NCBI GenBank assembly: GCA_045604285.1
Contig: JAZUNS010000122.1
Span: forward strand, 1-61,994
DNA from: Eubacteriales bacterium
Lineage (GTDB): Bacteria; Bacillota; Clostridia; Oscillospirales; CAG-382
Direction: 5' to 3'
DNA: 61,994 nt
In this document: positions 35,920-48,736 of the stretch, piece after piece
Layout: each line of letters begins with the position of its first letter
How positions within the stretch are numbered: the first letter of the stretch is position 1
Notes under the pieces: generated by a model
Database searches by the model: none
The model's input: only the letters and a program-made list of their open reading frames with translations
What the model was told of the DNA's origin: nothing
Program-made: the position numbers and the translations under genes

Positions 35920-35952
35920 AGAAAAAACAAGGCAACATAACGGTTGCCTTGT
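35920..35952 (-). terminator. Intrinsic terminator ending the 12.7 kb ABC/Yip1 operon
   Basis: Minus strand AACAAGGCAAC-cgttat-GTTGCCTTGTT followed by TTTTTCTT, about 20 nt after the stop at 35974. Confidence 0.85.
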
Positions 35953-35973
35953 TTTCTATACTTGGTATAAGTA

Positions 35974-37008
35974 TTAGCCGGTAACACCGGTACGTTCGAT
36001 ACCTTGAACAAGCTTCTTCTGACCGAAAAGGAACAGAATTACAAGAGGTATCAGTATAAGTATACCAACTGCGTTCTGGATTGCCAATGCATAATTGTTA
36101 GCAACCTGTGCATAATCTTCAAACCAACGCAACGCGGTAGAAGTTTTTTGCACTTCATCAAGGATTTGATTATAGAACACATAGTCGGAATTTGCATAAA
36201 GCATCTTGGTATAGAATCTGTCAGTCCACTGCCAAGAGAAGGTAAAGATGAATATAGTTACCATCATAGGTACGGACATGGGAACGATTATATTCCAAAA
36301 CGTCCTCATGGTGCCTGCGCCGTCAACGTACGCAGCTTCTTCAAGTTCATCGGGAACACCTTTATAGAACTGACGCATCATGAAGATATACAAACCGTTT
36401 CTGTAGCCAATTGCACCGAAAGAAAGAAGTGCAATAGGCCAGTTGGTAGCAAATACGGAATCGGATTCAGGATTCAAAAGGTTTATGCCCAAAGGAATGC
36501 CCCAAATCTTAAAGTCTTGGAAGAAGAATCTCATTGTAGACTGCATCGTCTTGTGAGGAATTACAAGAGTAACGATTACAAACAAGAACAGCAAAGACTT
36601 ACCTTTGAAGTTAAACTTGGAAAAACCGTAGCCTACAAGAGAACACATAAGCATTTGTACGACACCGCAGAACAAGGACACAAGACCTGTATTAAGCGTT
36701 GCCTGCCAGAAAGAGGTTTCGTTTAAAATCATCTTGTAAGTATCAAAAGTAGGATACTTAGGTACAAGCTTAACGGTAACGTCAACGAAATCTTCACCGG
36801 ACATCAAAGAGGTAGATATTTTTGAATAATAAGGGAACAGTATTACATATGAAATACCAATAAGGAATGCATATCTAAACAGTGCCCACAAAAACTTTTT
36901 TGCTGCGAAAAGGGTAAGATACTTATATCTAAAGCGAGTCCAACCGGTAACGTTTTCGTCCAATTTAACTTTATTCTTAGAATAAGTAGGTCTGTCAAAA
37001 GCTCCCAT
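35974..37008 (-). CDS. Binding-protein-dependent ABC permease (MalG/LplC-like), second pair
   Basis: Polytopic protein with EAA loop EEAAYVDGAGTMRTFWNIIVP. An AAGGGGGA RBS is present. Confidence 0.88.
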   Translation of the reverse strand: MGAFDRPTYSKNKVKLDENVTGWTRFRYKYLTLFAAKKFLWALFRYAFLIGISYVILFPYYSKISTSLMSGEDFVDVTVKLVPKYPTFDTYKMILNETSFWQATLNTGLVSLFCGVVQMLMCSLVGYGFSKFNFKGKSLLFLFVIVTLVIPHKTMQSTMRFFFQDFKIWGIPLGINLLNPESDSVFATNWPIALLSFGAIGYRNGLYIFMMRQFYKGVPDELEEAAYVDGAGTMRTFWNIIVPMSVPMMVTIFIFTFSWQWTDRFYTKMLYANSDYVFYNQILDEVQKTSTALRWFEDYAQVANNYALAIQNAVGILILIPLVILFLFGQKKLVQGIERTGVTG

Positions 37009-37026
37009 TAATAACTTCCCCCTTTC

Positions 37027-38010
37027 TTAGTCTCTACGTTGATAGAATACATATGCGGAAATAATACCGGCAACAGCACCTATTATCAACAGAATTACGA
37101 TGAAATACATCCACGACATTGACATCGCCAACGAAAGATTAGTGGTACCGGAGGTCTCATTAATCTCGGTTATATATTTCATTACGTTATTAGATTCGGT
37201 AGTAAACGCATCGATTATGGTATAAATTGCATTTACAAGAATCATAGGGCTGATCATAGGGAAAGTAATCTTCCAGAAGGTTTCCCAAGAAGATGCGCCC
37301 TCGATATATGCAGATTCGTAAATTGCGGGAGCAATAGACTGCAAACCTGCAAGGAATATCAGCATTTGTACACCGGAACGATTGATGATGCCATAAACGT
37401 CATTAACAAGACCGGTAACGTAGGTAACAAGGCCTTCGCCTACTGCCATATTTGCGAAGAAACGCTGAACGTCAATCTGGTTAATAATTTCTGCGCCTGC
37501 AGAAGCAGCTTGGCCTCCTTCCTCACCGGAAGAAATTGAACCCATGCTCTCGGTCATTGTGTTTGCTGCGATGTCAATATACTCAATTATACCGGTCGAA
37601 ACGATAACAGGTATAAAGAATATAGCTCTGAATACTGCTCTGCCACGCATCTTTTGATTAAGAATAATAGCAAGGAAGAGCGAGAAAATTACTATAGCGG
37701 GAACGTCCAAGAGCAAGTCGAGGAGGTTGGTACCAAGCTCTTGCAAAAATCTAACATCTTCACCGATAAACGCATCAATATAGTTCTGAAAACCAACAAA
37801 ATTGTACGTAACGGGCTGAGATGTAGCATCGATTCTGCTAAAGCTTATACGTAAAGACTCAATTATCATCGGAAGATATATGAATGCAAAGCCCAAAATG
37901 AAAGGCAATACAAACACATACCCCATCCTTGATCTGCTCTTTTCCAAGGATTTCGATTTACGACGCTTAGCCGGGCTGCTTAAAGATGCAACTGTGATTC
38001 TGTTTTTCAT
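37027..38010 (-). CDS. Binding-protein-dependent ABC permease (MalF/LplB-like), second pair
   Basis: Polytopic protein with EAA loop ESAYIEGASSWETFWKITFP. ATG 38010 (AGGAGG upstream) is preferred over ATG 38037. Confidence 0.86.
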   Translation of the reverse strand: MKNRITVASLSSPAKRRKSKSLEKSRSRMGYVFVLPFILGFAFIYLPMIIESLRISFSRIDATSQPVTYNFVGFQNYIDAFIGEDVRFLQELGTNLLDLLLDVPAIVIFSLFLAIILNQKMRGRAVFRAIFFIPVIVSTGIIEYIDIAANTMTESMGSISSGEEGGQAASAGAEIINQIDVQRFFANMAVGEGLVTYVTGLVNDVYGIINRSGVQMLIFLAGLQSIAPAIYESAYIEGASSWETFWKITFPMISPMILVNAIYTIIDAFTTESNNVMKYITEINETSGTTNLSLAMSMSWMYFIVILLIIGAVAGIISAYVFYQRRD

Positions 38011-38026
38011 TATTATCCGGCCCTCC

Positions 38027-40885
38027 TTATCCTTCATTAGACGGAGCGAATGTTAAAATATCCGTCGCTTTTACCGTATGGGTTCCATTATCATGGAATA
38101 CAAAATCGGAATCGCTGTAATTAATAACAATTGAATATCCATTGTCATAAGTTACGCGTGCAACGTTATAGTAATCATCGAGGAACTCGTGCTTAACTAT
38201 ACAATTATATTTAACATTGCTAAGTACATCGTTAATCTCGTGATAAGTATTGTATATATCCTCAAGCCAAATGCTGTATCTTACAGAGTAATACTTGGAA
38301 TAAGACTCATCATTCTTAAGATCGGATGTATTCTGAACTGCAACGATAAAGTAAGGAACTGCGCCACATTCTATAGTCTTCAAAACAGAGGACTGATAGT
38401 CGCCTGCCAGGTTCAAAGCTGTACCTGCATACTCAACAGAGCCGTGAAGAACCATGCTATAGAAAGGTATCTCAGTAGAGGTGTTTCTCAACAAAGAGTC
38501 TTCAAGAGGAACTTCAAGAATAAGGTCGGCGTACTTTACAGCAAAAATATTACCACCGGTAAGAAGTACGTTTTCGTTTTGCTCGCTGACTTTCTTAAGA
38601 AGTCTGTCAACGAGAACCTTGGAGTCTTCTCTATTAAGAGGATCATCTTCGTTAAAGTCAGAATTAAGATACTGACCTAAAGTAGAAACTGAAATAGCGT
38701 TAACACCGTACTCTTTGTACTCAGAATAGGTAGAATCGTAAAAGCCCATCATCTTGTTTGTAGAAATAACGCCAAGGCCGCTGTAATCGTAAGATTGATA
38801 TACGGGGTTATAAGCCTTCATGAAAGCTTTTCTGTCATCAATTGTACGAGCAAGATCCTTATCTGCGTCAAAACCGTCAAACATTTCGTCTGCTCTGGAA
38901 AGGGTAAAGTCAAAATCGGGATAAACAGTAACGCCTTTATCATGAGCATAGGAAATCAAGTCTTTAAACGAATCATCGCCACCAAGAACTTTTTCTACGT
39001 CAACGCCGGAAGGAACGTTATAATCAAGACCGCCATCCAACCAACCGTTAAGCTTAACAACGATATTATTAATCTTGCGACCAACACTATCGCCCTGAAG
39101 CATATCAATGATACTTGTCTTGATATCGTCAAAGGTGGTTAATGCTTTCATCTTGGAGTAAGGAACACCAAGAATGCGCGCGGTTGTTTCAATAGCACCC
39201 AACGTTTCAATTACAAGAGGAATATCAGCTTTATCGTCTGCTTCCATAAGAGAGATGGTGCCGTTATCAAGCAAGTAAGAACGCAAGGTATTTGCCATCG
39301 AAGAATAGCTTGTATCCTTTTCATCAAGGATAAAGATTCTAACCTTATAGTTTCTTGTATATTTACGTTTTGCTTCAACAGTCCACATTGTAGAACCGCC
39401 GGAACCACTACCACCAAGACTATATTGGTCGGTAGGACGAGGGTTAAACTTAGTGTAAGCCTGCAAATAAGGATGAGAGTTTGCAGCACAGTTAACTGAA
39501 ATGTCTGCTAAAGATTCACCCTCTTCAACGTAAGCCAAGTAGCCTCTTGCCTTTTCTGTTCCGTCTTCTGCAGCGACAACTTCAGTCATGCCGAAAACAG
39601 GAAGCCTTGCAACTTCGTTGTTGGAACCGGAAATGGTAGAGAAAGAATAATCCTGACCGTATGCAGTAGTTACTAAGGTAAATGTTTGAGATTTTGCATC
39701 TTTAAAATCAATGATAGCACCGGAGCCATCGGGATAAAGAGCAAAACCAGAGTTGTTTATGTTACCAGCACCTGCATAAGGAAGAAGATATACGTCATTA
39801 AGCTGGAAAGACGAGGAGTCGAAACGGATATTACCTGCAGAACAACGAACAACCATACCATATTTATCAAAGGTATATTCAATAGCAAGCTTGAAGGAAG
39901 CAGGAGCTTCGGTTGCAACGGTATAACCGGTTTCTGCATGGTCTTCGTCCAACTGCTCAGCAGTGTAGCCGACTTTCTTTACCCATTCTTCGATATCATC
40001 CATTACTTTACCTTGACCGGTCTTTACGTCGTAAAGATAGCATGTGCCCAACCTATTAACTGCATTTACAACATAATCGGGTTCGCCGGAAAGGTCATCT
40101 TTGCTTATAGGTCTGTAAGGAGCCTTAGCTCTTTCAGAATAGAAATCAAAATTATCGGGATAATCAATGAGCAACTGAGCGTCAACTTTTTCCATCAAAG
40201 CCAAATACTTTTCTTCGGTAATGAAGAAAGGAAGTATACGCTTAACTGCCTGTTCACCAACAGCGTATTCAACTCTGGCACCGTTCTTTATGCCGGAAAT
40301 CTTAATCTGATCGAACAATGCGGACTCTTCAAAGCTATAATACTTATCAGCAACACCGTTTTGAGTGTAATCGATTATAAGCTGAGAATAAAGCTGTGCC
40401 TTGATAGATGTAGCTGCTGTAATACTGCCTATAGCGTAGGGGTTGGTAGACCACTGACCACAGAAGTCATAAATAGCCGTAACTTCATTGCCCTTTAAGT
40501 CTAAAATCGTTTTGTCCGCATAATCGGGATGCAAATCGGGCTTTTTGTCGCCATCAGCATCAACGAGTTTAAGGCAAATAAGCTCACCCGTTAAATCATC
40601 AACATATAACGCATAAGCAGGTGTACCGTCAGCATCATTGTGAGCATACACAAACTTCATGGAAGGTATGCCACCATTAATAACATCAGCGGTAGGTCCG
40701 TCAGCGTATATGCGCTCTACAATGCTTGCGTAAGGAGCAATCATATAAGCCGCTTCAAGCTTATCCCATTTATCAACCGCTTCACCTTCTTCTTCAGCAA
40801 AAACGGTAATAAAACCACAACAAGGGATACACAAAGCCAATACTACGAACAAGGCAATAACTGATAATAATTTATTCATCTTCAT
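38027..40885 (-). CDS. Large (~950 aa) secreted/anchored protein of unknown function, possibly glycoside-hydrolase-like (resembles what I recall as DUF5696; unverified)
   Basis: It has an N-terminal signal/anchor (MKMNKLLSVIALFVVLAL..) and a long uninterrupted ORF. The C-terminal half has alternating beta/alpha-like motifs (VVKLNGWLDGG, VTVYPDFDF, NAISVSTLG, LLTGGN). The start is uncertain (40885 vs 40909). Confidence 0.75.
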   Translation of the reverse strand: MKMNKLLSVIALFVVLALCIPCCGFITVFAEEEGEAVDKWDKLEAAYMIAPYASIVERIYADGPTADVINGGIPSMKFVYAHNDADGTPAYALYVDDLTGELICLKLVDADGDKKPDLHPDYADKTILDLKGNEVTAIYDFCGQWSTNPYAIGSITAATSIKAQLYSQLIIDYTQNGVADKYYSFEESALFDQIKISGIKNGARVEYAVGEQAVKRILPFFITEEKYLALMEKVDAQLLIDYPDNFDFYSERAKAPYRPISKDDLSGEPDYVVNAVNRLGTCYLYDVKTGQGKVMDDIEEWVKKVGYTAEQLDEDHAETGYTVATEAPASFKLAIEYTFDKYGMVVRCSAGNIRFDSSSFQLNDVYLLPYAGAGNINNSGFALYPDGSGAIIDFKDAKSQTFTLVTTAYGQDYSFSTISGSNNEVARLPVFGMTEVVAAEDGTEKARGYLAYVEEGESLADISVNCAANSHPYLQAYTKFNPRPTDQYSLGGSGSGGSTMWTVEAKRKYTRNYKVRIFILDEKDTSYSSMANTLRSYLLDNGTISLMEADDKADIPLVIETLGAIETTARILGVPYSKMKALTTFDDIKTSIIDMLQGDSVGRKINNIVVKLNGWLDGGLDYNVPSGVDVEKVLGGDDSFKDLISYAHDKGVTVYPDFDFTLSRADEMFDGFDADKDLARTIDDRKAFMKAYNPVYQSYDYSGLGVISTNKMMGFYDSTYSEYKEYGVNAISVSTLGQYLNSDFNEDDPLNREDSKVLVDRLLKKVSEQNENVLLTGGNIFAVKYADLILEVPLEDSLLRNTSTEIPFYSMVLHGSVEYAGTALNLAGDYQSSVLKTIECGAVPYFIVAVQNTSDLKNDESYSKYYSVRYSIWLEDIYNTYHEINDVLSNVKYNCIVKHEFLDDYYNVARVTYDNGYSIVINYSDSDFVFHDNGTHTVKATDILTFAPSNEG

Positions 40886-40889
40886 AAAA

Positions 40890-43226
40890 TTATCTACCTG
40901 CCTTTCCATAAGTATCTTTAAGCTTTTTTATACCCTTATTTGCAAATACGAATATAGCTATCACTGCAACAACTATAACTACCGTAAGAATAGCATTAAG
41001 GGGTTTGGTGAAGAATTCACCGATCTCTTCAGTTGTGCCTCTAAGCTTCAATTCTACGAAAATAGTATAGACGAAAGAAGCTATTTTTTGAACAAGGCTA
41101 GTAAACAGTATGCCGATGAACATAATAAATGCCATACCAACTATACTACCTACTATCGTTATCAAATTCTTGAAAAGCGCATAGTCGTGAATTACCATTA
41201 CGCCGAAGAACAGAAGCATCAAAGCCCAAACGAAACCAAAAGAGGTCAAAAGATTAACCAAACCTTGCTCGTCAAGGATGGTAACATTTGAAAGCAAAAC
41301 TGAAGGTATAATCGTCAAGGGAAGAGGAAGAAGTGCATAACAGGTAGTGATATACACATCCTTCAAGCTACCTTCACCCTCGAACAGCGTGGTCAAGCAC
41401 CAGTTAGCAGCAACCCAAAGCGCAACGGGCATTAACACTGAAAGAATAGACATGAAGATACTGGATTCTTCATTATAAGGATTATAAAGGTAGCCTTTAC
41501 CCATTGCTTGATACACAAAAGCAACAACAGTAATACCGAGGATAGTTGTAGCACCCTTTATAGAACCACGCTTTTCATGTTTCAAATCCCAGAAACCATC
41601 GAAAGGATGGGTTAGGATATGGAAAGCATAAAAAACTTCTTCCTTAAGAGTTCTCTTTTCTTTGTAAACAAGACCCTTTTTGTTGACCTTAGTTATATAT
41701 TTCATACACTTGCTAAGAAGAACAAGTGCAACAACTACAACAACAGGGATAAGATATACCCACTTTTCAATCCATTGCTTACGTAAAGCTGCATAAGCAA
41801 TAGAGTAGTTTTCGGTATCATAAGCAAGCTTACAATACTTCATGGATTCTTCATAATCACCATCACGATACAAACTTTGGGCAATGCCTATGTAAGCACT
41901 ATCGTAATTGTTATTGTGCTGAAGTATGGTCTTGTAATACTCTACAGATAAATCGTAATTCTGATCCAAAGTGTTCTGAAGAGCAGCTGCAACGAGATCG
42001 CCGTATTCGGTTCTTTCGTAAACAGTTATAATATTAAGGTCGCTAAGCACAAGAATCTTAGAACCCTGGTAGGCGATAGCGTTAAACGTTGTACCCTGCC
42101 CTATTTGTTCACCTTTATCACCAAAGGCGAACAGCAAGTTGCCGTTATTATCATAAGTGAATATACGGCTACGCTTTTGGTCGATTATACTCCACATACC
42201 GGAGGGCCCAAGGGCTACGTCAACTATTACAGAAGCGCCGGTCACGGTGTTTTCTGCAGTTGCGATAACATTAACGTCAACCTCACCGGAAGGAGGATAA
42301 AAGCCATTTCTTCTCATAACGTCACTACCGTTAGGATTCAGCTTTTTAACGGGAGCATAGTCAGCAGATTTATCACGGTTAGTAATTGCGTTCTGCTGTT
42401 CAGCTGCGTCAATGGAAGAAGTAGTAACATACAAGAAGCCTTCAGAGTCGATCGTGATATTGTTATACTCTGTAGGAACGAACTTTTCACCTGCAGCAAT
42501 TTGTTCTTCTGAAAGGAACAAGGAACGCCACAGAATTGTAAAAGCGTTATAGGAAACTTTCTGAGGACCTATAAAGTTATTGAATGAACCATCACGGTTA
42601 AGGGAAATAACGCCGTAGTTTGTACTTTGAGAAACTACATAAACACGACCGGCTTGGTCAGCAGCTACTGCGATAGGTGTGTAAATGCTATTCTCGGGCA
42701 TTACGTCACTGGAAGGTTCGGGAACGATGCAAACAAAATTACCGAGCTTATCAAAAATAACGATACGCTTATTCTTAGTATCGGCTACATACACTTCAGT
42801 ATCGGAAACATACAGACCGGTAGGGCCTGACAAAGAATCGGCAACGCCTTCATCATTTACGAAATCGCTAATAATGAACTTAAGTGCATAATTCTCATCA
42901 AGAACTTTAATGTTGTTCTTTATAGAGTCGGAGATATAAACGTTATTTTCGTTGTCTGTACAAATATCCTCAATTGCGCCAAATGCCAATTGGTCGGAAG
43001 TGTACATGCTGCTTGCATTCTCATTTGCACCTGCTTCAAACTGCTTAAGAACGGAATTGGCTGTAATAAGAGTTGAAGATACATACGCATGGGGACTTTG
43101 AACCATCTTACCGTTTACGTCATAAGTATAAGTGGTATACGGAACAATCGCACTTGCCGATATGCAACCGAGAAGCATAACAAAGCAAAACGAAATGGAA
43201 ATGAATTTAATTAATCGTTTTTTCAT
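40890..43226 (-). CDS. Lipoprotein NHL-repeat propeller / TPR-like / Yip1-like multi-pass membrane fusion protein
   Basis: Lipobox MLLGC. It has repeated NHL-like blades (VYISDSIKNNIKVLD, VYVADTKNKRIVIFDKLGNF, VYVVSQSTNYGVISLNRDGSF, RIFTYDNNGNLLFAFG) and a TPR-like stretch (aa 410-485). About 7 TM segments follow, with a Yip1-like core. Confidence 0.72.
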   Translation of the reverse strand: MKKRLIKFISISFCFVMLLGCISASAIVPYTTYTYDVNGKMVQSPHAYVSSTLITANSVLKQFEAGANENASSMYTSDQLAFGAIEDICTDNENNVYISDSIKNNIKVLDENYALKFIISDFVNDEGVADSLSGPTGLYVSDTEVYVADTKNKRIVIFDKLGNFVCIVPEPSSDVMPENSIYTPIAVAADQAGRVYVVSQSTNYGVISLNRDGSFNNFIGPQKVSYNAFTILWRSLFLSEEQIAAGEKFVPTEYNNITIDSEGFLYVTTSSIDAAEQQNAITNRDKSADYAPVKKLNPNGSDVMRRNGFYPPSGEVDVNVIATAENTVTGASVIVDVALGPSGMWSIIDQKRSRIFTYDNNGNLLFAFGDKGEQIGQGTTFNAIAYQGSKILVLSDLNIITVYERTEYGDLVAAALQNTLDQNYDLSVEYYKTILQHNNNYDSAYIGIAQSLYRDGDYEESMKYCKLAYDTENYSIAYAALRKQWIEKWVYLIPVVVVVALVLLSKCMKYITKVNKKGLVYKEKRTLKEEVFYAFHILTHPFDGFWDLKHEKRGSIKGATTILGITVVAFVYQAMGKGYLYNPYNEESSIFMSILSVLMPVALWVAANWCLTTLFEGEGSLKDVYITTCYALLPLPLTIIPSVLLSNVTILDEQGLVNLLTSFGFVWALMLLFFGVMVIHDYALFKNLITIVGSIVGMAFIMFIGILFTSLVQKIASFVYTIFVELKLRGTTEEIGEFFTKPLNAILTVVIVVAVIAIFVFANKGIKKLKDTYGKAGR

Positions 43227-43241
43227 GTTATCCTCCTTATT

Positions 43242-44129
43242 TTAGTCCTTCATACCGGAAGTAGACATTGTTTGAATTACATTACTTTGAGTAATGATAA
43301 ATACGATAATAGGAACTATCATGGTAACAACAGTAGATGCAGCGGAAGCACCTGCTCTCGCTATACCTGCAGAAACAACCTGGCTTATAGCGTAGTTAAA
43401 AGTTTTAAGCTGTTCGCTATAAATGTAGGTACTTGTACCACTGTTCCACAAACCATTGAATGCAAATATAATCAAGGTAACCCACGCAGGCTTAACCATG
43501 GGCATTGCAATGGTCCAGAAAATTCTCATTTCGCTGGCACCTTCAAGACGGGCAGACTCAAGAACGGGGTCAGATACGGATGTTTCCATAAACTGCTTCA
43601 TCAAGTACAAGCCATACGTTGTACACCATGCAGGAACTATAAGCGCCCAATAGGTATCGATCATACCGAAGATAGACATTGTTATAAAGTTGGTTATACC
43701 TGTAACTGTAGAGTTAAACATCAAGGAATAAACAACTATCTTAAAGAAGAATTTTCTACCGGGGAAAGCTATCTTCGCCAAGGCGTATGCCGCAAGAGAG
43801 GAGAACAGTACGTTGCCTGCGGTACCGACTACTGAAATAAACACGGTATTAAATATGTAGCGTGAAAAAGGTACCCAAGCGTCACCCAACATTCTGAACA
43901 AGTCGGTATAGTTTTTGCCGGTGGGATGTTCAACAAACACTCTGGGCGGGAACCGCCACAGCTCATCAAGAGGCTTGAGGGACTGTGAAATGGCATAAAT
44001 CATAGGGAAAATCATTACAACGCCGAACAAAGCGAGGAAGAAAAATATACCTGCATCGCCGCCGGCAGAGCGATTTAAACGCTTAGGTTTGTCGCCCTTC
44101 TTTTGCGCTCTGGTTAATTTCTTAGCCAT
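43242..44129 (-). CDS. Binding-protein-dependent ABC permease (MalG/LplC-like), first pair
   Basis: Polytopic protein with EAA loop ESARLEGASEMRIFWTIAMP. Confidence 0.9.
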   Translation of the reverse strand: MAKKLTRAQKKGDKPKRLNRSAGGDAGIFFFLALFGVVMIFPMIYAISQSLKPLDELWRFPPRVFVEHPTGKNYTDLFRMLGDAWVPFSRYIFNTVFISVVGTAGNVLFSSLAAYALAKIAFPGRKFFFKIVVYSLMFNSTVTGITNFITMSIFGMIDTYWALIVPAWCTTYGLYLMKQFMETSVSDPVLESARLEGASEMRIFWTIAMPMVKPAWVTLIIFAFNGLWNSGTSTYIYSEQLKTFNYAISQVVSAGIARAGASAASTVVTMIVPIIVFIITQSNVIQTMSTSGMKD

Positions 44130-44134
44130 ATTTC

Positions 44135-45082
44135 TTATGTACCCACCTTTCTCAACATTTTGGTAACGAGGGCGTTTGCACCAACCATCATGAGGAACAA
44201 GATGGTTGCAATTGCAGATGCATAACCCATTTCAAAACGTGATCCACCGTAGTCCTGGAGATGGTGCATTATGGTATGCACACAATAGTCAGGGCTGGGG
44301 AAACCTACAAGCGCAGTTATAACGGCGCCGAAGCCAAAGGAGTTGGTTATCGCCAAGATAGCACCGAGCATAAGCTGAGGCTTCATAGTAGGAAGGGTGA
44401 TATACCAAAGTTCCTGGAAACGATGCTTAATACCGTCAACCGCACCTGCTTCGTACAAAGACTTATCAACAACCTGGAAACCTGCGATAAACGTAAGGAA
44501 CGAAGTACCCAAGCTGGTCCAAAGAGCAACTACAATTACCAACGGGAATATGTAATCAGTATCCTGGAACCAAAGCACAGGGGAATTGATAAAGCCTAAC
44601 TGCATAAGCCAGGAGTTAACAAGACCGTATTGGTCGCCGGAGAACAGCAACGTCCAAATGAGGTATACGTTACCTGCTATGGAAGGTGCATAGAATATAA
44701 GGGTTACAAATGCTCTAAGCTTAGGCTTAAGCTCATTTATAAACCATGCGATAAACAAAGATAACAAATAAGATACGGGGCCGGTTATGCATGCAAAAAT
44801 GAACGTATTTTTAATAGATAAAAGGAAAATATCGTCATCGAGGAAAAGTCTGATATAGTTATCAAACCAAACAAGATCCGGCCACTCAAGCATGTTGAAC
44901 GTAGTAAAACTGAGAACCACGGAAAGGATAACGGGAACTACAGTGAATGTGAAGAAAAGAAGGAAGAACGGAGCAATCATAAGATATGCTACTTTATACT
45001 TTTTCATTTCTATCCAAGTCCACTGGAGCTTTGATTTGTCTCTTCTAAGCACAGGCTGCTCAGAAATTGTCTTTTGTTCCAT
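44135..45082 (-). CDS. Binding-protein-dependent ABC permease (MalF/LplB-like), first pair
   Basis: Polytopic protein with EAA loop YEAGAVDGIKHRFQELWYITLP. Confidence 0.9.
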   Translation of the reverse strand: MEQKTISEQPVLRRDKSKLQWTWIEMKKYKVAYLMIAPFFLLFFTFTVVPVILSVVLSFTTFNMLEWPDLVWFDNYIRLFLDDDIFLLSIKNTFIFACITGPVSYLLSLFIAWFINELKPKLRAFVTLIFYAPSIAGNVYLIWTLLFSGDQYGLVNSWLMQLGFINSPVLWFQDTDYIFPLVIVVALWTSLGTSFLTFIAGFQVVDKSLYEAGAVDGIKHRFQELWYITLPTMKPQLMLGAILAITNSFGFGAVITALVGFPSPDYCVHTIMHHLQDYGGSRFEMGYASAIATILFLMMVGANALVTKMLRKVGT

Positions 45083-45120: not shown

Positions 45121-48100
45121 TTAATCATCCAGAGGATAATCTTCAGCTATAGGCAGATCAAACTCTTGCCTCTTTCTTGAAAGCTCTGCATTAATTGTAG
45201 TTATGTAGGACTGCAACTTTTCAACAGGTTCGTCATCATCATTGTAAACACCCAAGAACGCAAATTGTGCATAACGAGCAATTATGTAACCACCGGGATA
45301 TTCGGGAGTACAAGTAATGTTCTGGAACTGTGCAAAAAGTCTGTCATACTCAGCCTTAGACCAAGGCATGGAGTAGAGTGCTTCCATGTTAGCGGTGTTC
45401 TGCTTTGCGGAAGGACCGAGAAGAGCTTCCATCTCGTTACCGTAGCTACTTTGTGCATCAGCGCTGGACCACCACTGCATAAATACGTATGTAGCAAATT
45501 CGTTTCCACGCTCTTCAACAGAACGCAACATCATCATGGTTGTAACGGTACCAACAGAAGTATTGTTAATGATACCGGTCTTTTCATCAATAGTGCCGGG
45601 CAGCGGAACGAATTCCCACATACCGTTAATTTCAGGCGCAAATACTATAAGCTGGTTGTATGCCGTATAATCAGCAACTGCAATGGGCATTTCACCGGAG
45701 CGGAAACGGTTTGCAAAGTCATAGGTTACGGGGAAATCATACATCGTGTAAAGCTGGCAAACGTCTTCAAAACATGCCAATGCAGTTTCGTCATCAAGGT
45801 TGATTGTCATACCGTCGGTTTTAGGAACCTCAAGAGAAACAAGCTCACCGGTGTTTTCATCAACATAAGTCTTAATGTATGTGTTGCCGCTTTCCTTTAA
45901 CTTTTTCCAATATTCTTCGTTGTTCTTATAGGCATCATAATTGCCTTCATCGTACATCGTTATACCCTTTTGGTACATCCAAATCGTAGAGCCGGTAACA
46001 CCGGAGGGGAAACCGATTTCCAACTTGTTGGACTGTAAGGTATAAATCATCTGATAGAACTCATCCCAGGTATAAGGAACGGTCAAATCAAGTTCTGCTA
46101 ATATGTCTTTTCTGTAGAACATCATATAGAATGACATATTTTCAGGAATACCATACATCTTGCCGTAAAGTGTAAGGGGTACGGTAGCCTGTTCAGCAAA
46201 ACGTTCTTTTACTTCATCAATGGTATCAACTCTCCAATCAAGAGCGCCATCTTCAGTGTAAAGAATATTGCCTTTTTCATCCTTATAGTATTTGCTGAAA
46301 TATTCGTCATCTTCATAGGCAGAGAAATCATTAAAGTTGTAACCTTTAACATCATCACCCTGCTTATATTCGGTTGTATCATTTAGAGCCATTACCGCTG
46401 AACGAATTGCGTAGTTGATTGCCTCCGTCTGTGCATTACCCAAAGCAACGTCAGGGCCGGTGCCTGCGAGGGTGGAAGGCAACAACGTACCTGCAGCAAC
46501 CAGTTTAACTTTTATATCAATACCGGGATACAAAGTCGTAAACTTATCGTCAACCAAATTTCTCAAAATAGAAGCCTGGTCACGACCGGTAGTAACCCAA
46601 ACCTCAACGGTATGTTCTTGGTCGGTTTCCTCAGTGCCTTCACCGGAAGAACTACTAATAGAAGTATAATCGGTGAAGAAGGACATCACAAACTTAAGAA
46701 TTTCCTGCCACAGTTCTCTAAAGAAACCGGCTTCTGCTTCGGGAAGTGCATCAGCAGGAGACATAAATCTAAAGTAGTCGATATTTAAGGGCTGATTCTG
46801 GGTTTGTGTAAGCCAAGTACCCAAAGAACCACTTTGTGTTTTCAAATCATCCATCAAAGAAGCGATCTTAGAAGGATCATTACCCATCTGGCTAACGGTG
46901 TAAGCAACTTTCTCAAGGGTTACAGAGTGATCACCAGGGCCCATAGCAGCTACGAGCTTATCATAAATATCATAAAGATTTTCTGCCTCAGTCCTCAAAC
47001 CTCTAACAACCTCGGGCAGAGTACGCTCAAAGCTGTAGTCACGATATTCGTCAGGATCGGGACCGGTAATCATCAATATCTTTCTGTAGTAAGAGTTTAT
47101 ATTATTAAGAGAAACTTCAACGTCGCTAAGAAGACCGGCCATCTCGCCAAGAACGACCTCAAGTCTGATTGTATACGTATGGTCTTTTTCCAAATAGAAT
47201 TTGAAATCAGTATTCCCGTCGGAGAGAACACCGGTCTGCCATACGTCGCTGTAATCGAAACGCAAAGCTGCAGCTTCAGCAAAAGGAATTTCACCATCGA
47301 TATACAGTCTTCTGGAAACAAAAACGCCGGAGTAGAAGTCCTGTATAGAACGAGTTACTATGTTATAAAAGCCGGTTTCGGGAACAGTAACCTGCCACTC
47401 AATCCACTGACCAACATACTGCCACTTGTCGCCGCCTATTTCATTAAGGAGTGTACAAGATACGTCCTGAGGTTCAGTGTAAGCGGAAGTTCTGTCGCTG
47501 GTTTGGTATATTGTGTTAGAAGAAGTTTTATATGTATCTTCACCTTGAACAGAAACACAAGTACCGGAAGTTACGTCCTTTGCATCCTTATGAGCCTCAA
47601 GATACTCCTCATAAGACTGTGCGCTCTTTACAGGGACAAAAGAGAGTGCAGACAGAACGAGAGGCTCTCTGATAGCGTCAAGGGTAACCGTATGGGTAGA
47701 GCCGGCTTCAAGATAAAACATAAGGGGCTCAGAAGCATAGCCGGTGGAATCGTAAATCTTAGTAGTTACCCATTCTGCAAGCAGTTCCTTATCAGGCTTC
47801 TTTTCGTTATCATTGCCATCTACAACGAAAAGGGTTTTACCGTTTTTCTTAGCTTCTTCCAAAGCCTTGAAATACGCCTCTTCATTGGAATAAATAGCAA
47901 CTTTACCTTTAACACACTTATCGCAGCCTTCCTTGCTACCGTTGCAATTCTCGCACTTTAAATAGTAAGTGTCAAGCCAAGTACGCTGAAATTCTACAGA
48001 ACGCGCTTCCTTATAGGGAATCGCACCGTCGATAAGTATCTTTCTTTCAATAGCGGAGTTCTTTGCAGTAATATTCAACAAATCAGCACCGCATTCTTTA

Positions 48101-48651
48101 CACTTAGTTTCAGTGTTGGAAAAATCTTCCTTTTCAACAGTTGTAACGGTAAGCTTGTGACCGTCTTCGCAACTATCGGAAGGATAAAAATACACGTTGC
48201 CGGTGTAATATTCAGCTTCTAACCAATAGAAGGCGGTTTCTTCTACAGTGAATGTAAAAGTAACGCTACCATCATCGCCTGCAACGAGAATAGGAAAATC
48301 AGCACTCTTGTCAACGCCTTCAACGCCGGCAAGCTTGTTTACGTTTTCCAAATAAGCAATCGTAGCGTCATGAGCTTTTTCATCAACACAAGACGACAAG
48401 TCGATGCTTATCTCTTTCGTTGCATTCTTATCGCTTGAATAAGAATTAACGTGCAAATAGTCGGAATAAGAGGTTGAAGATAATTCATCCTTAATCTCCG
48501 ACAAATCGATTTCTACCATTGAATCGGGAAGATCCATGGTACCGGTTTCAGCAGCGCTTGCATTTCCGACAGAACCAAAGCCTGTTACAAGCATAACAAG
48601 CATTAGCACAAAGACAAGCGCTCTTTTGGGCATAGAAGTTTCTCTTGCCAT
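45121..48651 (-). CDS. Giant (~1176 aa) extracellular solute-binding protein with N-terminal duplicated beta-sandwich (CBM-like) modules
   Basis: The C-terminal ~520 aa are family-1 SBP-like (VEVWVTTGRDQ.., GTGPDVALG). The N-terminal ~650 aa are extra. The signal peptide has ASAAE and no lipobox Cys. ATG 48651 has AGGAGG 8 nt upstream. Confidence 0.85.
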   Translation of the reverse strand: MARETSMPKRALVFVLMLVMLVTGFGSVGNASAAETGTMDLPDSMVEIDLSEIKDELSSTSYSDYLHVNSYSSDKNATKEISIDLSSCVDEKAHDATIAYLENVNKLAGVEGVDKSADFPILVAGDDGSVTFTFTVEETAFYWLEAEYYTGNVYFYPSDSCEDGHKLTVTTVEKEDFSNTETKCKECGADLLNITAKNSAIERKILIDGAIPYKEARSVEFQRTWLDTYYLKCENCNGSKEGCDKCVKGKVAIYSNEEAYFKALEEAKKNGKTLFVVDGNDNEKKPDKELLAEWVTTKIYDSTGYASEPLMFYLEAGSTHTVTLDAIREPLVLSALSFVPVKSAQSYEEYLEAHKDAKDVTSGTCVSVQGEDTYKTSSNTIYQTSDRTSAYTEPQDVSCTLLNEIGGDKWQYVGQWIEWQVTVPETGFYNIVTRSIQDFYSGVFVSRRLYIDGEIPFAEAAALRFDYSDVWQTGVLSDGNTDFKFYLEKDHTYTIRLEVVLGEMAGLLSDVEVSLNNINSYYRKILMITGPDPDEYRDYSFERTLPEVVRGLRTEAENLYDIYDKLVAAMGPGDHSVTLEKVAYTVSQMGNDPSKIASLMDDLKTQSGSLGTWLTQTQNQPLNIDYFRFMSPADALPEAEAGFFRELWQEILKFVMSFFTDYTSISSSSGEGTEETDQEHTVEVWVTTGRDQASILRNLVDDKFTTLYPGIDIKVKLVAAGTLLPSTLAGTGPDVALGNAQTEAINYAIRSAVMALNDTTEYKQGDDVKGYNFNDFSAYEDDEYFSKYYKDEKGNILYTEDGALDWRVDTIDEVKERFAEQATVPLTLYGKMYGIPENMSFYMMFYRKDILAELDLTVPYTWDEFYQMIYTLQSNKLEIGFPSGVTGSTIWMYQKGITMYDEGNYDAYKNNEEYWKKLKESGNTYIKTYVDENTGELVSLEVPKTDGMTINLDDETALACFEDVCQLYTMYDFPVTYDFANRFRSGEMPIAVADYTAYNQLIVFAPEINGMWEFVPLPGTIDEKTGIINNTSVGTVTTMMMLRSVEERGNEFATYVFMQWWSSADAQSSYGNEMEALLGPSAKQNTANMEALYSMPWSKAEYDRLFAQFQNITCTPEYPGGYIIARYAQFAFLGVYNDDDEPVEKLQSYITTINAELSRKRQEFDLPIAEDYPLDD

Positions 48652-48707
48652 TCGACATTCCTCCTGAAAATTACTGTATAATATTACATCATACAAATAC
48701 AAGCTTT

Positions 48708-48736
48708 ATATTAACAGATTGGAGTTATTTTGTCAA
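48708..48736 (-). promoter_or_regulatory. Putative sigma-A promoter of the ABC/Yip1 operon
   Basis: Minus strand TTGACA - 17 nt - TAATAT, about 55 nt upstream of the SBP start. Confidence 0.55.

Follow-up and report, generated by a model that had tools for sequence, protein, structure and literature searches.

A propeller-Yip1 membrane protein encoded within a conserved twin ABC sugar-import cassette of Bacillota

What does a membrane protein that joins a propeller to a Yip1 domain do among the genes of a predicted sugar importer? The question is raised by the window analysed here, a stretch of 61,994 nucleotides (nt) from a member of the Clostridia (Eubacteriales bacterium, assembly GCA_045604285.1, contig JAZUNS010000122.1), which carries, in minus-strand order, the genes for a giant solute-binding protein (SBP), the permeases PermA1 and PermA2, a protein of 778 amino acids (aa) that we call NHL-TPR-Yip1, a DUF5696 protein, and the permeases PermB1 and PermB2. 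An earlier note, made from the letters of this stretch alone, had described the 778-aa open reading frame (ORF), with exactly the coordinates found here (40890..43226, minus strand), as a lipoprotein NHL propeller fused through a TPR-like linker to a Yip1-like polytopic domain. The gene is real; AAGGAGGA is the ribosome-binding site, with the ATG 5 nt downstream. Our tentative answer, to which we assign a probability of roughly 0.45, is that the product is a non-enzymatic transmembrane adaptor subunit of one half (B) of a twin ATP-binding cassette (ABC) sugar-import cassette; we are much more confident that the product serves this cassette as a dedicated component, in whatever capacity.

The 778-aa protein begins with a signal peptide and a six-bladed NHL propeller; about two TPR-like repeats lead to a single transmembrane helix, and a basic cytoplasmic linker connects this helix to the five-helix Yip1 domain. 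Profile searches recovered both of the named domains above the Pfam cut-offs, as the earlier note had anticipated: NHL (PF01436) matched aa 132–158 with 37.3 bits (cut-off 20), the sole repeat to pass individually, and Yip1 (PF04893) matched aa 535–704 over profile positions 1–171 of 173 (E = 8.5 × 10−15; 55.5 bits, cut-off 28.6). A sequence search of the PDB with the 778-aa protein returned the NHL domains of Thin, TRIM2/3/71, Brat and PknD, with E-values down to 1.6 × 10−10. In an AlphaFold2 model built with 37 homologues (predicted local distance difference test, pLDDT, 80; predicted TM-score, pTM, 0.63), the beta strands between aa 32 and 405 form six blades, and the modelled propeller (at this pLDDT of 80) is superposable on solved NHL domains. 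These ranked first in a Foldseek search against the PDB (TRIM71, Thin, Brat and TRIM2; E = 10−15 to 10−12, target TM-score 0.70–0.75), with E = 7.7 × 10−16 and a target TM-score of 0.73 for TRIM71 (8j72) and E = 5.7 × 10−15 and 0.72 for Thin (6d69). The likeness to TRIM71, Thin, Brat and TRIM2 is one of six-bladed NHL fold, whereas TRIM-NHL domains are eukaryotic, cytoplasmic and RNA- or protein-binding, unlike the predicted extracytoplasmic propeller considered here. Two segments of the propeller stand out, a variable helical insert at aa 55–84 and a highly conserved loop at aa 288–333 (PVKKLNPNGSDVMRRNGFYPPSGEV; positions 42227–42364) that contains 7 invariant columns and may serve to bind a partner or a ligand; the same loop is the lowest-confidence part of the modelled ectodomain (pLDDT 46–57). 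As a separate observation, three representative proteins of 883–998 aa (P0125, P0130 and P0162) carry inserts of 150–270 aa in the N-terminal part of the propeller region, with no Pfam match.

The TPR-like linker held up as a fold, whereas the 778-aa protein remained below the cut-offs of the Pfam TPR families (TPR_19, 18.1 vs. 25 bits; TPR_2, 16.9 vs. 27 bits). A split orthologue passes TPR_2 (28.4 vs. 27 bits), aa 423–472 find matches among the consensus TPR proteins of the PDB (E = 3 × 10−7), and the AlphaFold2 model contains five antiparallel helices between aa 407 and 489, that is, about two TPR-like repeats followed by a capping helix that continues into the first transmembrane helix.

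The lipoprotein assignment was not sustained. The LLGC string of the 778-aa protein fits a relaxed lipobox, but a lipobox-like cysteine is found in just 2 of the 119 full-length homologues, and P0002, which is 89% identical to the 778-aa protein, has LLGS in its place, whereas an AxA..PY signal-peptidase-I site (here ISASA|IVPY) is present in all 119. As judged from these alignments, the family feature is a predicted signal-peptidase-I signal peptide, not a lipoprotein anchor, although this single protein may be lipidated. Because the protein starts with a signal peptide, the propeller and the TPR-like repeats are predicted to lie outside the cell, as the earlier note had proposed, and both the hydropathy and the distribution of lysine and arginine residues fit this topology: there are 11 such residues in the linker after the first transmembrane helix (aa 508–556), none in the two short Yip1 loops with a predicted outward position, and 5 in the C-terminal tail after the sixth helix.

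The layout of the membrane part agreed with the earlier note in the first transmembrane helix, the basic cytoplasmic segment and the five closely spaced Yip1 helices, and differed in the status of the last helix. A long helix in the AlphaFold2 model (aa 492–517) precedes the basic linker, and the arrangement typical of Yip1, five transmembrane helices after a cytoplasmic segment, is satisfied by this linker and the modelled helices at aa 556–576, 590–615, 621–646, 651–680 and 684–729 (pLDDT 78–94). The last helix (aa 732–777) is modelled with less confidence (pLDDT 55–70) and belongs to a 47-aa extension that is confined to the 778-aa protein and its closest relatives (778–780 aa, at least 77% identity; in alignment A1, the 778-aa protein, P0002 and P0005), whereas about 98 of the 119 homologues are 730–739 aa long and end right after the fifth Yip1 helix. 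The extension could have originated by an insertion or by read-through of a former stop codon. Eukaryotic Yip1/YIPF proteins share with NHL-TPR-Yip1 the PF04893 domain, a five-helix membrane core and a cytoplasmic N-terminus of that core, but serve vesicle traffic in the Golgi/ER together with Rab GTPases, partners that bacteria do not have; the Yip1 domain described here differs further in that its N-terminal side bears an extracytoplasmic domain and one extra helix.

The pattern of conservation within the protein is uneven. In the stretch at aa 536–554 (the HPFDGFWDLKHEKRG region), which marks the start of Yip1, 12 of the 19 columns are invariant and mean conservation is 0.92, followed by 0.89 in the predicted cytoplasmic loop at aa 608–624 (NWCLTTLFEGEGSxKD, aa 608–623) and 0.79 in that at aa 680–688 (HDY..KN, aa 680–687), compared with 0.48–0.51, the lowest values, in the Yip1 loops predicted to face outward. 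The segments predicted to be cytoplasmic are thus the most conserved parts of the whole protein (0.79–0.92), suggesting that Yip1 does more than anchor the propeller.

The genomic context of the gene is conserved to an extent that argues for a dedicated role in the cassette. At 90% identity, the matches to the whole protein form over 2,800 clusters, with relatives encoded in at least 584 species genomes; the Yip1 part alone yields 1,660 clusters at 50% identity, 268 of these at E ≤ 10−30. The co-occurrence with neighbouring genes, which the earlier note had suggested checking, proved to be strict: in 80 of 80 related loci, down to 46% identity, the seven genes are kept in the same order on one strand as far as the contigs reach. 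The flanks of these loci are not conserved (a VanY-type peptidase, PFOR or a ROK kinase, for example), and no conserved regulator or ATPase was found beside the cassette among the 80. Across the phylum, 35 of the 401 genomes sampled (about 9%) have a DUF5696 match that passes the cut-off, with at most 3 copies per genome, and Yip1, DUF5696, PermB1 and PermB2 are contiguous in this order in 29 of 29 loci. The NHL-TPR module accompanies Yip1 in all 16 of the wider stretches, either fused to it (9) or encoded by a separate, often overlapping upstream gene (7), and the NHL-TPR-Yip1, DUF5696, PermB1 and PermB2 genes are never separated in these stretches, whereas the position of the SBP-PermA1-PermA2 block varies: before this core, after it (L123, L126 and L128) or elsewhere (L118 and L129). 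The earlier note had placed the gene between two permease pairs; in the window, PermA2 is its neighbour on one side, but DUF5696 intervenes before PermB1, and the gene does not directly adjoin both pairs.

Two additional cases of NHL-TPR and Yip1 encoded separately were found in metagenomic loci (L084 and L085). In the split forms, the NHL-TPR protein ends with a transmembrane helix and a basic tail, and the Yip1 protein begins just before the HP(F)D..FW motif; fused and split forms diverge in the basic linker that holds HPFDGFWDLKHEKRG. On a tree of the Yip1 domain, fusion or fission must have happened at least twice, and on the best tree four times; such repeated fusion and fission implies that NHL-TPR and Yip1 form one functional unit. 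Two apparent further architectures were rejected. The 783-aa 'permease + propeller + TPR' fusion at L084:5869-8220 is an artefact of assembly and gene calling, in which a scaffold gap (XXX, aa 215–217) and out-of-frame residues are followed by a new signal peptide that starts the true NHL-TPR protein; given the gap and the frame break, it was not used as Rosetta-stone support for a contact with PermA2. Representatives of 430–510 aa are truncated, their starts lying within the propeller, and do not constitute a third architecture.

In the window, the NHL-TPR-Yip1 and DUF5696 ORFs overlap by 20 nt, with overlapping start and stop codons, an overlap created by the C-terminal extension, and DUF5696 overlaps PermB1 by 11 nt, an arrangement that suggests coupled translation.

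To ask which parts of the cassette evolve together, we analyzed rate covariation in 54 complete loci, as the partial correlation (partial r) that is left after removal of the mean distance of all other parts, with ranges that span 5–95% of subsamples; the values of partial r are not probabilities, and the pairs of loci are not independent. The SBP and PermA1/PermA2, which served as an internal positive control, gave partial r of 0.54–0.57 (range 0.40–0.67 for SBPc-PermA1). The NHL part covaries with the C-terminal part of DUF5696 (0.36; 0.26–0.47) and not with PermA1/PermA2 (about −0.13; −0.29 to 0.07), Yip1 covaries with PermB1 (0.30; 0.17–0.43), and the N-terminal part of DUF5696 with PermB2 (0.52; 0.38–0.63). 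Covariation thus places NHL-TPR-Yip1 with DUF5696 and the second permease pair. The assignment of the protein to the B half follows from the contiguity and overlapping frames, the recurrent fusion and fission, and the rate covariation taken together.

A bacterial precedent exists for a Yip1-family protein that serves an ABC transporter. YknW modulates the assembly of the YknXYZ ABC transporter (PMC4887032), and Yip1 genes recur next to ABC accessory genes in bacteriocin clusters (PMC8659200). Like NHL-TPR-Yip1, YknW is a bacterial polytopic membrane protein of the Pfam Yip1 family encoded within an ABC-transporter operon; by its description, it is set apart by the lack of a large ectodomain and by its partner, a MacB-type exporter with a membrane-fusion protein, whereas NHL-TPR-Yip1 carries a propeller-TPR module and is associated with permeases of the type I, CUT1-like importer kind. 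The transporter-accessory role that the earlier note had raised is supported by this precedent along with the synteny, the ORF overlaps and the covariation. Yip1-family accessories of ABC transporters are, accordingly, a kind already known, the novelty here being the ectodomain and the association with an importer.

In the adaptor reading, the signal peptide would be cleaved and a short TPR stalk would hold the six-bladed propeller close over the outer side of the membrane. One helix would span the membrane, and the five-helix bundle of Yip1 would pack within it, presenting to the cytoplasm or the inner leaflet a highly conserved face (the HPFDGFWDLKHEKRG helix, the EGEGS loop and HDY..KN). 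The B half would comprise NHL-TPR-Yip1, DUF5696 as a surface protein of predicted GH129 fold, PermB1 and PermB2. The propeller and TPR repeats would position DUF5696, together with a glycan that it binds or trims, over PermB1 and PermB2, and Yip1 would contact the permease, and possibly the ATPase side, organising or tuning the complex much as YknW does for YknXYZ. The physical contacts, the non-catalytic status and the effect on transport are what we infer from the patterns described above. Several points weigh against this reading. Both covariation and synteny can result from shared history or block-wise transfer without contact; extracellular scaffolding alone does not account for the conserved cytoplasmic face; and the propeller may harbour a catalytic pocket. 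In Paenibacillus, moreover, the SBP and DUF5696 have apparent uncleaved N-terminal signal-anchors and seem to be self-anchored, so a tether is not strictly needed; for the same reason, the argument that a tether is required by an SBP and a DUF5696 protein devoid of lipid anchors is weak and is not part of the main evidence.

Alternatively, the protein might be an unconventional receptor or gate, whereby the propeller and DUF5696 capture the glycan and replace a binding protein at PermB1/B2 or act ahead of it, and Yip1 relays occupancy through its conserved inner face to the coupling helices of the permeases or to an MsmK-type ATPase. Such a role, although we regard it as unlikely, is suggested by the presence of a single SBP for two permease pairs in the window and its 80 relatives, with a terminator-like hairpin right after PermB2, by the covariation of the giant SBP with PermA and not with PermB, by the high conservation of the parts predicted to face the cytoplasm, and by the diversity of neighbouring carbohydrate-active enzymes (CAZymes; GH26, pectate lyase, GH106, GH35/42, the xylan locus), suggestive of a generic role in capture and import. 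If true, the propeller-Yip1 protein and DUF5696 would be a new kind of substrate-capture or gating device of an ABC importer. However, an ordinary second SBP is encoded after PermB2 or nearby in 6 of the 16 phylum-wide loci, although not in the clade of the window, so that the ancestral system probably had an SBP-B of its own, and in three more phylum-wide loci a giant SBP follows PermB2. We know of no ABC importer in which a propeller serves as the receptor.

A catalytic propeller, acting as a lyase, lactonase or esterase on a glycan or its decoration with Yip1 as a mere anchor, is likewise improbable. The Foldseek search also gave virginiamycin B lyase (E = 3 × 10−10), there is a partial match to ScyF, the NCBI name of the Peribacillus/Metabacillus orthologue is 'SMP-30/gluconolactonase/LRE family protein', and the loop at aa 288–333 is conserved. 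Yet the best structural matches are binding propellers, and membership in the enzyme families failed: the ScyF match reaches 50.6 bits with a cut-off of 350, and Pfam SGL (SMP-30/gluconolactonase/LRE) had no match at E ≤ 0.01 in the 778-aa protein and 14.6 bits in the split orthologue (cut-off 26.3). Furthermore, the invariant residues of the propeller lie mostly in the structural xxDxxNxRIxxFD blade motif, and a single helix would suffice as an anchor, whereas conservation is highest in Yip1 and its cytoplasmic loops.

Rather unlikely, too, is a factor that acts transiently in the insertion, folding or assembly of the twin transporter or of DUF5696 and is not a stoichiometric subunit. Pairings of TPR and propeller proteins are common in envelope assembly machines (BamB/BamD, TolB/CpoB), which favours such a factor, as do the description of YknW as a modulator of YknXYZ assembly and the strict synteny. 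The overlapping ORFs, however, suggest that the protein is made in amounts similar to those of DUF5696 and PermB1, and partner-specific covariation fits a stable contact at least equally well.

The earlier note had also considered a signalling element. PknD resembles NHL-TPR-Yip1 in that its propeller is of the NHL type, extracytoplasmic and carried by one transmembrane helix, but on the cytoplasmic side PknD has a kinase, in place of which there is here a Yip1 domain with no known output. A sensor that relays ligand binding at the propeller to gene regulation, while in keeping with this layout, with the PknD NHL domain among the PDB matches and with the conserved cytoplasmic motifs, is very improbable given that the Pfam search identified no kinase, helix-turn-helix, cyclase or other output domain, that no regulator is kept beside the cassette in the 80 loci, and that the gene is always within a transporter operon.

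The coordinates of the gene's parts and of the other elements of the cassette are collected in Table 1. The promoter-like site and the terminator-like hairpin frame the seven genes, with the proviso that the total count of promoter-like sites is not above the shuffled expectation.

Table 1 Features of the NHL-TPR-Yip1 gene and of the cassette around it.
Feature	Position	Strand	Basis
Signal peptide, aa 1–26 (MKKRLIKFISISFCFVMLLGCISASA)	43149..43226	−	Non-conserved lipobox-like LLGC; family-wide AxA signal-peptidase-I site
Predicted extracytoplasmic six-bladed NHL beta-propeller, aa 27–405	42012..43148	−	Pfam NHL, PDB sequence matches, AlphaFold2, Foldseek
TPR-like helical stalk, aa 406–489	41760..42011	−	PDB consensus TPR matches, AlphaFold2 helices
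First transmembrane helix, aa 490–512, predicted outside to inside	41691..41759	−	Hydropathy, AlphaFold2 helix 492–517, split orthologues
Basic, predicted cytoplasmic linker, aa 513–555, with invariant motif HPFDGFWDLKHEKRG (aa 540–554)	41562..41690	−	Lysine and arginine count, conservation, split forms
Yip1 five-helix membrane domain, aa 556–731	41034..41561	−	Pfam Yip1, AlphaFold2 helices, conservation
Lineage-specific C-terminal extension, aa 732–778, sixth helix, basic tail and stop codon	40890..41033	−	Alignment A1, length histogram, AlphaFold2
Giant SBP (block A), signal peptide without lipobox, SBP fold in C-terminal half	45121..48702	−	PDB sugar-binding proteins, E = 5 × 10−6 (aa 826–909); weak NCBIfam GanS; synteny
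Permease pair A: PermA1 44135..45082, PermA2 43242..44129	43242..45082	−	Pfam BPD_transp_1, kept order, covariation with SBP
DUF5696 protein, secreted or anchored, predicted GH129-like fold	38027..40909	−	Pfam PF18952, E = 8.5 × 10−151; AlphaFold2; Foldseek
Permease pair B: PermB1 37027..38037, PermB2 35974..37008	35974..38037	−	Pfam BPD_transp_1; always contiguous with Yip1 and DUF5696
Best promoter-like site 5' of the cassette: TTGACA, 17-nt spacer, TAATAT, extended TG	48708..48736	−	Consensus match only
Strongest terminator-like hairpin, 15-bp stem and T run, directly after PermB2	35922..35957	−	Consensus match only

For the neighbouring DUF5696 protein, a sequence search of the PDB found nothing, whereas a profile of 29 members gave weak, colinear matches to GH129 (E of about 10−3). 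The AlphaFold2 model (pLDDT 84, pTM 0.79) is predicted to fold like GH129 glycosidases: in the Foldseek search, ZgGH129 (5opq; E = 1.5 × 10−26, target TM-score 0.69) and NagBb (5wzr; E = 1.2 × 10−23, 0.72) came first, followed by GH101, GH36 and GH31. The likeness to GH129 (ZgGH129, 5opq; NagBb, 5wzn/5wzr) is one of overall fold, identity being about 11–12%, and DUF5696 has an additional N-terminal region of about 330 aa. Acidic residues are conserved in the barrel region (D665/D667, D678, D751, E761/D762 and E847).

No Pfam family matches the giant SBP at E ≤ 0.01, nor is there any Pfam hit to its N-terminal 580 aa; it is recognisable solely via the segment that matches solved sugar-binding proteins (aa 826–909). 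Its TTG start at 48702 is doubtful because it directly follows the promoter-like site; the true start is probably an ATG 16 codons downstream (MARETS...). A lipobox-like pattern is present in 7 of 65 SBPs, and in the clade of the window both the SBP and DUF5696 have signal-peptidase-I-type signals.

With four BPD_transp_1 permeases, a family-1 SBP and no ATPase gene in the operon, the cassette resembles the CUT1 importers that share an MsmX/MsmK-type ATPase. It is unlike them in that two permease pairs are locked together with NHL-TPR, Yip1 and DUF5696, and in that the SBP is giant (about 1000–1200 aa) and is not a lipoprotein. Sugar importers of Firmicutes usually share an ATPase encoded elsewhere; since two UgpC/MalK-type ATPases are encoded on other contigs of the genome (2.0 Mb, 99.95% complete, with one DUF5696 gene), the absence of an ATPase from the cassette is unremarkable. 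One UgpC/MalK-type ATPase of this genome (624 aa; L083:796-2670, contig C115) extends by about 240 residues beyond the OB/TOBE region, with no Pfam match in the extension.

Named carriers of the system are Caldicellulosiruptor obsidiansis, C. hydrothermalis and C. acetigenus, Paenibacillus taichungensis, P. pabuli and P. odorifer, Peribacillus frigoritolerans and Metabacillus idriensis. The cassette of C. saccharolyticus is Csac_2412-2419, consisting of an SBP (2412), permeases (2413/2414), a hypothetical protein (2415), the NHL/TPR membrane protein (2416), permeases (2417/2418) and an SBP (2419). A re-annotation table gives lengths of 2127 nt for Csac_2416, entered as an NHL/TPR membrane protein, and 2208 nt for Csac_2415, entered as hypothetical (PMC4510573 supplement), and Csac_2412-2414 and 2417-2419 have been described as CUT1 SBPs and permeases of a xylan degradation locus, these transporter genes being induced on xylan-rich biomass (PMC5658599). 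Csac_2416 and WP_013289541.1 of C. obsidiansis match the 778-aa protein in architecture and in position within the cassette, but differ in sequence (27–33% identity over the domains), in the second, ordinary SBP after PermB2 and in the absence of the sixth helix. In one C. obsidiansis locus (L124:4362-7221), PermA2 is split by an opposite-strand gene for an IS110-family transposase (442 aa; Pfam DEDD_Tnp_IS110 and Transposase_20), a split that has probably inactivated the A half of that strain's cassette. The cassette adjoins genes for varied CAZymes and other proteins (GH26, pectate lyase, GH106, an apiosidase-like protein, GH35/42, a glucoamylase-like protein and GxGYxYP proteins); hence, its constant parts are not tied to one glycan. 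In databases, the orthologues bear the names 'YIP1 family protein' or 'NHL repeat containing protein'. Among searchable papers, no paper was found for DUF5696/PF18952, for a YIP1 family protein with an SBP, or for NHL with Caldicellulosiruptor, the sole description found of the family being the hypothetical protein entry in the re-annotation table (PMC4510573 supplement). The gene studied here is an unexceptional copy of a system that is widespread and so far uncharacterised.

In the usual view, the ABC sugar importers of Gram-positive fibre degraders require no more than a binding protein, a pair of permeases and a shared ATPase. To this set the cassette adds three constant parts, the propeller-TPR module, Yip1 and the GH129-like protein, none of them characterised in any searchable paper, and it locks two importers together. 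Its carriers include Clostridia of the gut and rumen, Paenibacillus and, in the xylan locus, Caldicellulosiruptor, which is studied for biomass conversion, and there are genetically tractable organisms among them. Once worked out, the function of the propeller-Yip1 protein would provide a second defined role for bacterial Yip1 proteins, and it could show how the processing of glycans at the cell surface is coupled to their uptake.

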